Below are positions 154 through 4,171 of a stretch of DNA of 4,171 bases, one piece after another. A program made the position numbers and the translations under genes. Below the pieces are notes generated by a model. The model was not told the origin of the DNA. It searched no databases and saw only the letters and a program-made list of their open reading frames with translations. Where the stretch lies: the IMG/VR virus record IMGVR_UViG_3300029476_000079, one strand, 5' to 3'. The DNA is from a virus. Lineage: Duplodnaviria; Heunggongvirae; Uroviricota; Caudoviricetes. Every line of letters starts with the position of its first letter. Position 1 is the stretch's first letter.

Positions 154-790
154 CCGCTTTTACCTGATGTGCTTGCGTGAAACTGTGGGTAATAACGCCT
201 CATTCCATTGCCATAACGGCAATGGTTACAGTTCTGATATCGATCGCGCTCATGTTTACACGCTGGAAGAAGCCCAAAAAGCCTGGAATTGTGGGCGAGA
301 TATCGATCAGCCTGTTTGCGCGGATAGCGTGGATGCAATGGCAGTGTGGCACGTTGATTGCCAGTACATCCCTACAGAAAGCCTGATTGAGTCAGATTGC
401 ACTGCGTATGTGGCCTACAAAAAAGGTAGCTGGAACGGCAACGATGTTTACTGGCTTCAACACGGTGGATTGCCAACAGATGACTTCAGTAAAGCGACCA
501 TCTTTAGCGTCGCCAACAAAAACGAACCAGGAATAGTTTGGTTGCCATTTTCCATTGCTGATGCAGCAAAGCGCCGGACGTTCAATATCAATAAATTTAA
601 CCGCAGAACAATGGTTCAGGGCGCAGGTTTGGTCATGCCTGACTGGTTGAAAAAGCAGAACAGAAGAAAGAAGTCGCGAAGCGGGAAGGTGCGTTGGAAT
701 TGTCCGCATTGCGGAAAAATCACCTGGCAGTACANNNNNNNNNNNNNNNNNNNNNNNNNNNNNNNNNNNNGTGAAGGATGGCGAGAATGA
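146..790 (+). CDS. Hypothetical prophage protein (~214 aa), basic C-terminal region followed by a CPHCG motif; residues encoded by 735-770 undetermined
   Basis: GTG start at 146 preceded by GGAGG (135-139) with 6-nt spacing. Open frame to TGA 788-790, which overlaps the ATG of the next gene (ATGA at 787-790). The frame passes through the 36-nt N-run, so the exact C-terminus is unverifiable. No family recognised. Confidence 0.6.
   Translation: MNNRFYLMCLRETVGNNASFHCHNGNGYSSDIDRAHVYTLEEAQKAWNCGRDIDQPVCADSVDAMAVWHVDCQYIPTESLIESDCTAYVAYKKGSWNGNDVYWLQHGGLPTDDFSKATIFSVANKNEPGIVWLPFSIADAAKRRTFNINKFNRRTMVQGAGLVMPDWLKKQNRRKKSRSGKVRWNCPHCGKITWQYXXXXXXXXXXXXXEGWRE
735..770. other. Run of 36 undetermined bases (N): assembly gap or masked segment
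   Basis: Literal n characters in the sequence. Length is a multiple of 3 and the flanking ORF stays in frame across it. Confidence 0.95.
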
Positions 791-1355
791 CAATTGACTA
801 TCAGGTACTGCGTGAGGCGGCAGAAAAGGCAACACCAGACGAATGGGTCGCATTTATTTCGACGGATACTGGTACTTATGCGGTGCACACGCCCGGTGAT
901 GAACGATGTGAAGACGTTATCAAATGGACCGGCTTTGATGGACAGAAAAATGCAGAGAACAACGCTCGTTATGTTGCCGCGTTCAACCCAAAGGTTGCTT
1001 TGGCACTACTGGATGAACGGGAAAGAAACCAGCAATACATCAAACGCCGCGACCAGGAGAACGAGGATATTGCGCTTACGGTTGGGAAGCTGCGCGTTGA
1101 GCTTGAAGCNNNNNNNNNNNNNNNNNNNNNNNNNNNNNNNNNNNNNNNNNNNTTATCTCTGATGGGTGCAAGCGTATTGCTGAACTGGAAGCGCGGGAAG
1201 TTCAATTACCGACTCGCTACGACCTTCGATATGGACACCCGATAAATGCAGATGAGCGACAAGTCATGATACCTAAAGAAAATGGCAGTTGGCTTTACCT
1301 GATTGACCTAGAACACGCATTACGCGTCGCTGACATTCGTATCAAAGGAGAGTGA
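787..1355 (+). CDS. Ead/Ea22-like prophage early protein, reading frame interrupted at the N-run 1110-1152
   Basis: ATG 787 with AAGGA (774-778) 8 nt upstream (alternative in-frame ATG at 778). N-terminal part in frame 1 reads MTIDYQVLREAAEKATPDEW...ARYVAAFNPKVALALLDERERNQQYIKRRDQENEDIALTVGKLRVELEA. After the 43-nt N-run, an uninterrupted start-less ORF in frame 0 (1155-1355) reads ISDGCKRIAELEAREVQLPTRYDLRYGHPINADERQVMIPKENGSWLYLIDLEHALRVADIRIKGE and ends at TGA 1353-1355, one base before the next start codon. The NP.VALALLDE and RIAELEAR motifs match my recollection of the Ead/Ea22 family; this is not database-verified. Confidence 0.55.
1110..1152. other. Run of 43 undetermined bases (N) inside the Ead/Ea22-like gene
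   Basis: Literal n characters. Length is not a multiple of 3 and the coding frame differs on the two sides (frame 1 before, frame 0 after). Confidence 0.95.
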
Positions 1356-1356
1356 T

Positions 1357-1620
1357 ATGGCCACTTTAACAAAAAAAGAACGGGCATGGTTGAATGAATT
1401 ACAGGACGTTCTTGATCGCTGTCCATCACCAAAAAAAATTGGTTTTTACACCATTGGCGATAAAACCATTTACCTGTATGACCTACGCCGCATGGATGAA
1501 ATCATGGAGGCTCTTGATAATCGTTCGTCGATGGATTGGTGTGTTGCTGTCCATGATATGAATGCAGGGTTTGATGAAAAGATTTTGTTCCCCTCATCAG
1601 TTGAAAGCACTGCGGGTTAA
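1357..1620 (+). CDS. Hypothetical protein, 87 aa (MATLTKKERAWLNELQDVLDRCPSPKK...)
   Basis: ATG 1357 preceded by AAAGGAGAG (1344-1352). The start lies 1 nt after the upstream stop. Ends at TAA 1618-1620, which is embedded in the SD of the next gene. No family recognised. Confidence 0.7.
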   Translation: MATLTKKERAWLNELQDVLDRCPSPKKIGFYTIGDKTIYLYDLRRMDEIMEALDNRSSMDWCVAVHDMNAGFDEKILFPSSVESTAG

Positions 1621-1630
1621 GGAGTAACAC

Positions 1631-3175
1631 ATGACCACTATAACCAAAGAGCGACTGCTGACAATCAAGCAGTGGCGCGAAACATACGGACCGGGTAGCA
1701 ACGTTGTACTGCCAGCAGAAGAAGCGGAAGAACTGGCACGGATTGCACTGGCATCATTGGAAGCAGATCCAGTTAAACGAGTTAACTCAGATCAGATGCA
1801 CCGAGTCTGCTTAGAAGCTAATCGCTATTTAGATAAATATGACGCGATGGCGAAAGAGGTAAATAAGTTGCTTGGACGCATCGCCCCGCCAGCGCCAGTA
1901 TTTAACGGCGAATACGGTGACGCATATCAGGGCGCTCGTGAAGACCTGTCCATCTGGAAACGGCGAGCGCTTGAAGCTGATGAGCACGTTCGGCGACTGG
2001 AGCAAATCAATGACCACATGGTGAAAGAGGCGCAGGGAGAATCACGCATGGGCGAGCCTGTAATACGTGAGCCAGCACCGGTAGTGCCTGAAGAAGCAAC
2101 TCCGGAAAACGTAGAAATGCTCTCTGGCTATGTTTCAACGTACAAATTAACCGATAGCGAGCGCGATATTGCTGCCGAAATATGGAACGCCTGCCGCGCC
2201 GCCATGCTTCAGTCCGGAAACTTTCGGGAAAACAAGAATTCGTCAACCAATAATTTTCGGGAAATCGCGGAAACGTCAACCAACTATCCGGCAATTCCTA
2301 GTGAGGTGTTGTCCGCAATCCTGAAGGTTGCCAGGATTCGTGCCGATTTCGATGATTTTGACGGTGACAGGCGAGGTATCGGTGATTGTCTGGATGAGGC
2401 CGAGCAAGAGCTTATCGTTACCATTAACAAATATGCCAGTCAGTTGGCAGCAGAACCGATAGCGACTAATGACGTTCGAGAGCAAACAGCCGTTCCGCCA
2501 ATACAGGCTGATGTCGCGCAAGCAATTGAAAATCTCAAGCAGAAGTTAGTGGAATGCAATCGCTATAACTACTGCGCAGATGCAGTGAAGAACGTAGAGG
2601 ATGCCTGCCGTGCTGTTAGCTATAGCCAAGCCGACAATCAGCCAGCATCTGGCAACCAGGCTGCCGAATCCAATCGCGGTAATGAGTGGACTGGCAATCC
2701 TGATATTGATAACGCCATCATCATGCTCGACCGCATAGATACGCTGGAAAATTGCGATGATGACCGTATTGAGGCTGTTAAGGCTGTTTTGCGTAGACTG
2801 GCAGGCAACTATCCGGATATTCCGGATAGTTCGGTGCCAGCACCAGGAAAGGGCGTCACCGGTGAACGTATCCGAATTAAGCCGCATGTTTATCGCGAAC
2901 TGGTTAACCGTCTCCACGATACAGCGATCAAGTGTGCTGGCACCCAGCAATTACGAGAAAGAATTAGCCGTGTTTTGGGCGACGTTATTACACCAGATCA
3001 TCATAAACAAGCCGAGAAAAGTGGCCTGGAAAGGTGTCACCTTGAGGCGGCATTAAACATTAAGCCGGGGCATACGCTTGGCATTATTGATGCACTATTG
3101 GTTCATAAGATGGCCAGGGCTTTATTGCCGCTGGTGGCTGAAAAGCATGAGGCGGACCATGCCAACGAAAGCTGA
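1631..3175 (+). CDS. Large hypothetical protein, 514 aa, rich in Asp/Glu/Ala/Asn, with an internal 11-aa tandem repeat and an acidic DFDDFDGD cluster; function unknown
   Basis: ATG 1631 preceded by AAGGAG (1619-1624) at 6-nt spacing. A 1545-nt uninterrupted ORF, the longest in the window, makes all antisense track ORFs inside it implausible. No catalytic motif confidently recognised. Confidence 0.8.
   Translation: MTTITKERLLTIKQWRETYGPGSNVVLPAEEAEELARIALASLEADPVKRVNSDQMHRVCLEANRYLDKYDAMAKEVNKLLGRIAPPAPVFNGEYGDAYQGAREDLSIWKRRALEADEHVRRLEQINDHMVKEAQGESRMGEPVIREPAPVVPEEATPENVEMLSGYVSTYKLTDSERDIAAEIWNACRAAMLQSGNFRENKNSSTNNFREIAETSTNYPAIPSEVLSAILKVARIRADFDDFDGDRRGIGDCLDEAEQELIVTINKYASQLAAEPIATNDVREQTAVPPIQADVAQAIENLKQKLVECNRYNYCADAVKNVEDACRAVSYSQADNQPASGNQAAESNRGNEWTGNPDIDNAIIMLDRIDTLENCDDDRIEAVKAVLRRLAGNYPDIPDSSVPAPGKGVTGERIRIKPHVYRELVNRLHDTAIKCAGTQQLRERISRVLGDVITPDHHKQAEKSGLERCHLEAALNIKPGHTLGIIDALLVHKMARALLPLVAEKHEADHANES
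2219..2284 (+). repeat. Imperfect in-frame tandem direct repeat, 2 x 33 bp, inside the 514-aa CDS
   Basis: aactttcgggaaaacaagaattcgtcaaccaat (2219-2251) versus aattttcgggaaatcgcggaaacgtcaaccaac (2252-2284), 25/33 identical. Encodes NFRENKNSSTN / NFREIAETSTN. Confidence 0.6.
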
Positions 3176-3443
3176 ATTACAGGTGCGCGTAGATGAGCTT
3201 GAAAAAGAGAACGCGAGCCTCAAAAAAATGCTGTCGCGGGCGGAAAGGGAATTATCAGGCAAATTATTGCCAGAAGAACTGCCACCAGCAGATATACCTG
3301 ATCGAGTGTCCTGGTGGATGAAGTATTTCCGTGCACCGTGGGAGGCGTTTTGGTGCTACGACCATCGCAGATGGTGTGATGAACTTGATAGCAGTTTTCC
3401 CTACTTTGCGGAAGGGAACACCTGCCCTCAATGCAGGGGATAG
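3159..3443 (+). CDS. Hypothetical small protein, 94 aa: N-terminal coiled-coil-like segment plus C-terminal four-Cys zinc-ribbon-like motif (C-x6-C-x15-C-x2-C)
   Basis: ATG 3159 preceded by GAGG (3149-3152) at 6-nt spacing. Overlaps the stop of the 514-aa gene by 17 nt. Ends at TAG 3441-3443. The track's longer start at 3078 has no SD and lies inside the upstream gene. Sequence MPTKAELQVRVDELEKENASLKKMLSRAERELSGK...WCYDHRRWCDELDSSFPYFAEGNTCPQCRG. Confidence 0.6.
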   Translation: MPTKAELQVRVDELEKENASLKKMLSRAERELSGKLLPEELPPADIPDRVSWWMKYFRAPWEAFWCYDHRRWCDELDSSFPYFAEGNTCPQCRG

Positions 3444-3501
3444 CATTTGACGAAATCGATCACCCTATCCTGAACTTCAGAAAGAAGGTCTTTTTCACGC
3501 G

Positions 3502-3529
3502 CCAGGACGTCAGGATATTGACGTTCTGG
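3502..3529. repeat. Imperfect inverted repeat (10-bp arms, 8-nt loop): CCAGGACGTC-aggatatt-GACGTTCTGG
   Basis: Arms are complementary at 9/10 positions; the mismatch would be a G-U pair in RNA. Lies about 60 nt downstream of the last operon gene. No U-run follows on either strand, so it is not a canonical intrinsic terminator. Confidence 0.35.
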
Positions 3530-3810
3530 CCTTATCAGATGCCGGAGCTTCCCATTAAGCAGAATGGCCTCAGAAAACACTTTTACGCTGTGCTTTATCC
3601 CCTCTGTTTCACTTTTCAGCGTCAAAATAAAGCGCAATTGCTTATTAGCCTGATTCGGATTCAATACACGAATTTGCAGTTCGTCTATGCTGTTTCGCAA
3701 TGGGATTGATGCCACCACACTGGTGCAGTCTCTGATTGTCTGAATTGAACGGCTAACATTGAGAACGTTATTGTGCATGTGCCTGATCCACTAACTCCTG
3801 GAGGTTTCTT

Positions 3811-3957
3811 GTGTCAGATCGAAATATAGCAGCTAAAAGCCAGGAAGAGCGAGACAAGGTGAACGTAGACCTTGCCGCCAGCGGCGTTGCTTACAAACCC
3901 CGCTTTCACAAACTATGCCTTTTCAATGTATACTGTGTGAATAAACAGTATCATTAA
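3811..3957 (+). CDS. Candidate small ORF, 48 aa (MSDRNIAAKSQEERDKVNVDLAASGVAYKPRFHKLCLFNVYCVNKQYH)
   Basis: GTG 3811 preceded by GGAGG (3800-3804) at 6-nt spacing. Open to TAA 3955-3957. The 3' third overlaps the promoter and LexA box of the downstream gene. Too short to judge by composition; below the ORF-track length cutoff. Confidence 0.25.
   Translation: MSDRNIAAKSQEERDKVNVDLAASGVAYKPRFHKLCLFNVYCVNKQYH
3905..3934 (+). promoter_or_regulatory. Candidate sigma70 promoter for the UmuD'-like gene: -35 TTCACA (3905-3910), 18-nt spacer, -10 TATACT (3929-3934)
   Basis: Hexamers resemble TTGACA/TATAAT. The -10 overlaps the LexA box, the usual layout for SOS-repressed promoters. Identified by eye only. 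Confidence 0.4.
3931..3950 (+). promoter_or_regulatory. LexA operator (SOS box) TACTGTGTGAATAAACAGTA
   Basis: Exact CTGT-N8-ACAG core with flanking TA...TA, matching the consensus TACTG(TA)5CAGTA. Lies 17 nt upstream of the ATG of the UmuD'-like gene. The E. coli umuDC operator, as I recall it, is TACTGTATATAAAAACAGTA. Confidence 0.8.
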
Positions 3958-3967
3958 GGTAAAACGC

Positions 3968-4171
3968 TATGGGCTTCCCTTCTCCTGCGGCGGATTATGT
4001 TGAAAGCCGTATTTCTCTTGATCAGCAACTAATCAGACATCCTTCAGCGACCTACTTCATGCGGGCGGCAGACAGCCATCACCGTGAGGGAATATTGCAA
4101 GGTGCTTTGCTGGTGGTTGATTCCTCACTTACTCCGGTTGATGGCTCACTGCTTATATGCGCTATGGAGGG
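3968..4171 (+). CDS. umuD: UmuD'-like (HumD-like) peptidase S24 family protein, 3'-truncated by window end; natively lacks the N-terminal arm of UmuD
   Basis: ATG 3968 with AGG (3957-3959) 8 nt upstream. Translation [68 protein letters not shown] aligns to E. coli UmuD residues 25 onward ([68 protein letters not shown]). In-frame stop at 3938-3940 with no start codon between it and 3968, so the protein genuinely begins at the Cys24/Gly25 cleavage-site equivalent. Confidence 0.85.

Follow-up and report, generated by a model that had tools for sequence, protein, structure and literature searches.

Two ends of one predicted Ead/Ea22-like gene on either side of a 43-N run in a mosaic phage-plasmid region

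Gene content and masked positions of the window

The window analysed here, by which we mean the whole 4,171-nt stretch of DNA, is densely packed with plus-strand genes and is interrupted by two runs of N, one of 36 N at 735-770 and one of 43 N at 1110-1152. The first of these genes, a 214-aa ORF of unknown function (146-790), holds the 36-N run at its 3' end; the same gene is called on the metagenome contig L033 and annotated in the related loci L002, L003 and L004. Its TGA (788-790) overlaps the start of an Ead/Ea22-like gene as ATGA. The 5' part of the latter (787-1109, plus strand) comprises codons 1-107 and the opening GC- of codon 108, corresponding to the N-terminal module, which is variable, and to a long helix up to its midpoint. 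Its 3' part (1153-1355, plus strand) picks up at the second base of codon 123, continues through codons 124-189 (ISDGCKRIAELEAREVQLPTRYDLRYGHPINADERQVMIPKENGSWLYLIDLEHALRVADIRIKGE) and ends with a TGA stop at 1353-1355. Between them lies the 43-N run, opposite which relatives carry 44 nt that complete codon 108 with its third base, run through codons 109-122 (AKSKLNEQREYYEG) and open codon 123 with its first. Exactly 1 nt separates the Ead stop from the ATG (1357) of an 87-aa gene assigned to phrog_1714 (1357-1620), which is followed in the same tight plus-strand block by a 514-aa gene (1631-3175) and a 94-aa gene (3159-3443). A 116-aa gene on the minus strand comes next, then a truncated hot gene and humD.

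The 514-aa ORF is a rare mosaic, its exact protein occurring on only 4 contigs among ~15 billion proteins, and is composed of modules matching phrog_60/3323/660 at the N-terminus followed by phrog_14306 and phrog_21459; the members of its 90% cluster are named DUF551 proteins, whereas Pfam finds no DUF551 in the ORF itself. Proteins identical to the 94-aa product are called 'antitoxin PHD' by NCBI, a name that looks doubtful from sequence comparison, with Pfam detecting only a weak bZIP-like coiled coil and no PhdYeFM; a genuine Phd/Fic pair is located further downstream in L033. Near the end of the window, a 48-aa ORF with a GTG start (3811-3957) represents a truncated hot, the homologue of DNA polymerase III theta (PF06440, 42 bits, profile 3-31 of 70), and runs into a LexA-box-like palindrome, TACTGTGTGAATAAACAGTA (3931-3950), just upstream of humD (ATG 3969, Peptidase_S24).

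Two ends of one Ead/Ea22-like gene

An earlier note had described the segment 787-1355 as an Ead/Ea22-like gene split by the second N-run, with the ORF call at 778-1245 reading the wrong frame after the gap. Our ORF finding reproduced this mechanical ORF, a product of 155 aa ending in ...LSLMGASVLLNWKRGKFNYRLATTFDMDTR. Its codons start at 778, 787 and so on to 1108 before the gap; after the gap a single frame, with codon starts from 1155, is open up to 1355 and encodes ISDGCKRIAELEAREVQL...IRIKGE, 66 aa followed by the TGA at 1353-1355. The interval from 1108 to 1155 is 47, so that one extra base is needed and a gap of 44 (or 41 or 47) nt brings the frames together, which corrects the lengths of 42 or 45 nt that the earlier note had given through wrong arithmetic. 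An N-run one base short would shift the post-gap coordinates by one and thereby carry the mechanical ORF to a spurious stop at 1245, its continuation at 1153-1245 (plus strand) being apparently non-coding. The ORF track also offered ATG 778 as the Ead start, but relatives do not use this position; their start corresponds to 787, in the ATGA that also contains the stop of ORF 146-790, and is annotated in L002 and called in L033 and L034.

With the 44-nt consensus of relatives filled in, the rebuilt 189-aa product matches the Pfam family PF13935 (Ead_Ea22) with 138.1 bits over profile positions 2-139 of 139, and the two halves form one continuous protein of this family. The N-terminal half alone reaches 110.9 bits over positions 2-107 of 139. 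When the masked residues were instead represented as X, the in-frame join scored 114.5 bits over positions 2-139, compared with 111.4 bits over positions 2-109 for the ORF-track product, and it was the only one of the X-filled joins to span the full profile. The rebuilt product, the X-filled product and the N-terminal half all exceed the gathering score of 27 bits. On the far side of the gap, the 66 aa alone match phrog_250 (77 bits, E 3e-21, profile 175-240) within a full-length match covering profile 73-240, such that the post-gap peptide and the N-terminal half match the same PHROG family contiguously. Homology thus lies with the C-terminal segment rather than with the out-of-frame tail, for which neither Pfam nor PHROG returned a match; an NCBIfam search also gave no match. 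In addition, the segment 1153-1355 occurs identically within annotated ead/Ea22-like proteins of 178-201 aa, and among 50 homologous segments (9 distinct DNAs) the proposed post-gap frame is the sole stop-free one, with 5 of the 7 variable sites falling at codon position 3. The proposal that the post-gap tail is real protein, ending 1 nt before the next ATG, is borne out in both its frame and its spacing.

A homologue search of a 5.8-billion-cluster collection yielded at least 8,000 matches at E <= 1e-5. The best 120 of these all carry PF13935, ~100 of the 120 being 178-228 aa in length and covering 96-100% of the rebuilt protein, and most of the source-named entries among them bear the name ead/Ea22-like family protein. 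In an alignment of the homologues, the N-terminal module varies, the central segment is conserved and the C-terminal module is shared. From this alignment, AlphaFold predicts an unbroken helix at residues 68-137 (pLDDT 90-96) that passes through the masked residues 108-122, while the C-terminal residues 138-189 are modelled poorly (pLDDT 41-55). A sequence search of the PDB returned chance matches only (E 0.8), the C-terminal module having no detectable similarity to any solved structure, that of the lambda Ea22 C-terminal domain included. From these sequence comparisons, 787-1109 and 1153-1355 are demonstrably the two ends of one predicted Ead/Ea22-like gene, the frame of which is restored by 44 nt.

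Length of the gap and the apparent frameshift

The earlier note had left two explanations for the break in frame: either the N-run does not preserve the true length, or the gene carries a genuine frameshift and is a pseudogene. Comparison with relatives lends better support to the former. All 51 fetched loci (49 independent contigs) carry 44 nt opposite the 43-N run and none carries 43 nt; between anchors, each has 3+44 nt where the window has 3+43. These loci comprise 28 IMG/VR contigs and 11 metagenome contigs, together with L001, L002, L033 and L034 (the last two refetched as L049 and L050) and six of the seven NCBI chromosome loci L051-L057. The 28 IMG/VR and 11 metagenome contigs came from a flank-pattern search that permitted gaps of 36-52 nt, and each has exactly 44 nt. 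The commonest filling, AGCAAAATCAAAACTCAACGAGCAGCGCGAGTATTACGAGGGAG, was present in 41 of the 43 loci of one comparison and encodes (A)AKSKLNEQREYYEG(V) without a stop or a start.

Individual relatives illustrate how closely the window is matched outside the gap. The E. coli chromosome locus L001 is 100% identical to window 1001-1109 and 99% identical over 1153-1767, and L002 holds an intact, annotated ead/Ea22-like CDS of 199 aa (WP_032239441.1); both have 44 nt at the gap. Two further metagenome contigs, found by looking up the 514-aa protein encoded at 1631-3175, likewise have 44 nt, and in each an Ead_Ea22 gene of 189 aa is called where the window has 787-1355: L034 is 100% identical over window 771-1109 and 1153-4171, and L033 over 1-734, 771-1106 and 1153-4171. 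An Ead_Ea22 gene ending 1 nt upstream of the 87-aa gene is called in L033 and L034 and also in L051 and L055-L057 (4 of the 7 NCBI chromosome loci shown); in L052 and L054 no gene is called upstream of the 87-aa gene, and L053 has a 30-aa ORF only.

L033 and L034 also bear on what the N-runs represent. Among 7,409 positions they differ at only 4, which cluster around the left edge of the second N-run at window 1107-1111 (L033 4394-4398 versus L034 340-344, EA-A versus EE-T alleles); this hints that the N-run marks a strain-variable assembly breakpoint. In addition, one end of the L034 contig falls inside the first N-run, the contig beginning at window 768. Because the two contigs differ only at the edge of one N-run and L034 ends in the other, the evidence suggests that the N-runs are assembly trouble spots with estimated lengths, as opposed to bases overwritten in place.

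The principal alternative is that the second N-run is faithful and the source DNA really has 43 nt, owing to a 1-nt deletion of biological origin or to a homopolymer error in sequencing or assembly, which would yield a recent pseudogene or a 152-aa truncated allele without the C-terminal module. The first N-run speaks for such a source: relatives have 36 nt there too in all 6 loci that span it, exactly its own length and as in-place masking would give, the hidden bases being GCCCATATGATTTTGAAGGCTGTCGTGATTACAACT (SPYDFEGCRDYNC) in five of these loci, L033 among them, and differing by one C-to-A change in the sixth. If the second N-run were also masking in place it would keep its length, and the source would therefore have 43 nt. 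The 44-nt stretch furthermore has two AAAA runs and one GGG run, sites prone to 1-nt indels; in related elements, PGAP marks neighbouring genes as frameshifted or incomplete; and most of the single-base deletions modelled in this stretch would give a 152-aa product ending at 1245. However, contigs identical to the window at all other comparable positions have 44 nt, as do all 51 relatives, and the post-gap frame shows no decay. Over ~3,360 compared bases the window has no other difference from L034, and the a priori chance of an indel falling exactly within the 44 masked bases is ~1%. Frameshifted products of the expected kind are likewise absent from ~15 billion catalogued proteins and 5.8 billion clusters: the predicted out-of-frame tail occurs in no such protein, and exact look-up retrieved none of seven modelled 1-nt-deletion products and none of four to five X-containing products. 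We consider a 43-nt source, whether from a real deletion or from an assembly indel, the less likely reading, though one with an appreciable probability. A natural frameshift allele, in which a 152-aa Ead/Ea22 protein would keep its N-terminal module and the coiled coil to half its length but lose the C-terminal module, appears more doubtful.

The search of the 5.8 billion clusters with the out-of-frame tail produced one match only, to an unrelated 72-aa product sharing part of the tail. In this product (P0001, on a Logan contig of 1,441 nt) an Ead N-terminus is fused straight to the out-of-frame peptide ...NWKRGKFNYRLATTFDMGTQ. It represents a genuine allele, by internal deletion or frameshift, of a related Ead gene found elsewhere, and is the sole such allele encountered.

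An arrangement of two separate genes, in which the masked bases would hide a stop and a new start and 1153-1355 would be an independent small ORF, is formally conceivable since the bases are hidden, with nothing further in its favour. It is contradicted by all relatives: their 44-nt stretches contain no in-frame stop, the three variants, which encode AAKSKLNEQREYYEG, EAKSKLNEQREYYEG or ETKSKLNEQREYYEG, carry neither a stop nor a start signal, and both the annotated 178-201-aa proteins and the Pfam profile run through the masked stretch, leaving this arrangement highly improbable. Least credible of all is programmed ribosomal frameshifting joining the frames of a true 43-nt source, for which nothing speaks beyond the frame offset itself, which is contradicted by all relatives, these being in frame with 44 nt and without a frameshifted allele on record, and for which we know of no recoding in the Ead/Ea22 family.

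We therefore favour an intact gene with an N-run that is one base short, the apparent frameshift probably being an artefact of the length of that run. For the source DNA itself we infer 44 nt, the N-run length being unfaithful and perhaps an estimated scaffold gap. On this intact-gene reading, 787-1355 would be a single ordinary Ead/Ea22-like gene in an early or accessory block of a P1/P7-like phage-plasmid, in which the N-run at 1110-1152 would stand in for a 44-nt stretch in the middle of the long central helix and fall one base short of it. Restoring the 44 nt would give a 189-aa protein in three parts, beginning with a variable module, continuing as a ~70-residue helix (68-137) and closing with ~50 residues of C-terminal module, a predicted layout like that described for lambda Ea22.

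Phage-plasmid context and relation to known Ea22 proteins

The best matches of the window are phage-plasmids of the P1/P7/D6/SJ46 type, and coverage of the window does not exceed 76% for any record in the phage, plasmid and E. coli collections. Scans of genome contigs did not recover the source record, and a 64-mer specific to the window occurred at three viral-contig loci, none of them the source. Judged by its best matches, the window belongs to the mosaic accessory region of a P1/P7-like phage-plasmid, in the form of a block of small genes. Phage P7 offers a comparison within the same region of the same kind of element, encoding the ead/Ea22-like family protein Upf88.3 (NC_050152.1); identity between P7 and the window is 96.3% over the 44% of the window that matches, but the gene set and modules of this highly mosaic block differ between the two.

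Among the ead/Ea22-like proteins of E. coli prophages and P1-like plasmids, one (P0002) is identical to the rebuilt 189-aa product. This intact protein is already catalogued on two ENA contigs from gut metagenomes. ENA is the only listed origin of the two exact Ead proteins, which lie on three contigs, while the 514-aa neighbour occurs on four contigs of JGI/IMG and ENA origin; the fourth, a JGI/IMG contig, is probably the source of the window and lacks a clean Ead product, which speaks for the intact-gene reading. The 87-aa neighbour, by contrast, is widespread. WP_032239441.1 (199 aa, E. coli 10035776-3) has its central helix and C-terminal module in common with the window protein, and its gene likewise begins in an ATGA overlap, ends at the same stop and is followed by the same 87-aa gene. 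It differs in its N-terminal module, the module of the window (787-1000) being joined to the shared module at ~1000, a junction typical of mosaicism in the Ead/Ea22 family.

The Ea22 proteins of lambda (182 aa) and of Stx phages belong to the same Pfam family, PF13935, as the window protein. Their N-terminus is short and variable, a central coiled coil accounts for about half of their length, and the C-terminal domain is a distinct unit that varies from phage to phage (PMC7093339, PMC10834534); the C-terminal fold of the window protein is the part that was poorly modelled. From experiments on lambda and Phi24B, Ea22 is described as a tetramer that favours lysogeny, is expressed early and is non-essential (PMC7093339, PMC10834534). 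The genomic position is different: lambda ea22 lies between exo and xis, whereas the gene in the window lies upstream of hot and humD in a P1/P7-like phage-plasmid, the window ending in the truncated hot and humD rather than in a lambdoid exo-xis region. The C-terminal module of the window protein also occurs beside xis/int in lambdoid prophages.

The annotation of this mosaic family is inconsistent between records. In E. coli NMBU_W05E18 (L001 2877-3191), RefSeq marks the homologous Ead gene as a pseudogene ('missing C-terminus'), while in CP041359 (L051 963-1499) another gene caller gives an intact Ead_Ea22 protein of 178 aa; over window 1001-1700, both match the unmasked bases with 100% identity.

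The gene described here is ordinary and already catalogued; it offers nothing new, and its exact product is in public collections. The relevance of the finding is limited to annotation, where the lesson is that the frame of ORF calls made through N-runs is untrustworthy and that the length of an N-run need not equal the true length. Were the 43-nt allele true after all, it would represent a recent inactivation or truncation of a phage-plasmid accessory gene. With the gene taken as intact, it is one more routine case in a large phage family whose function is poorly understood. By analogy with the lambda and Stx proteins, its oligomerising helix would present exchangeable end modules, and the protein may act as Ea22 does, forming oligomers and modulating the lysis-lysogeny decision without being essential.
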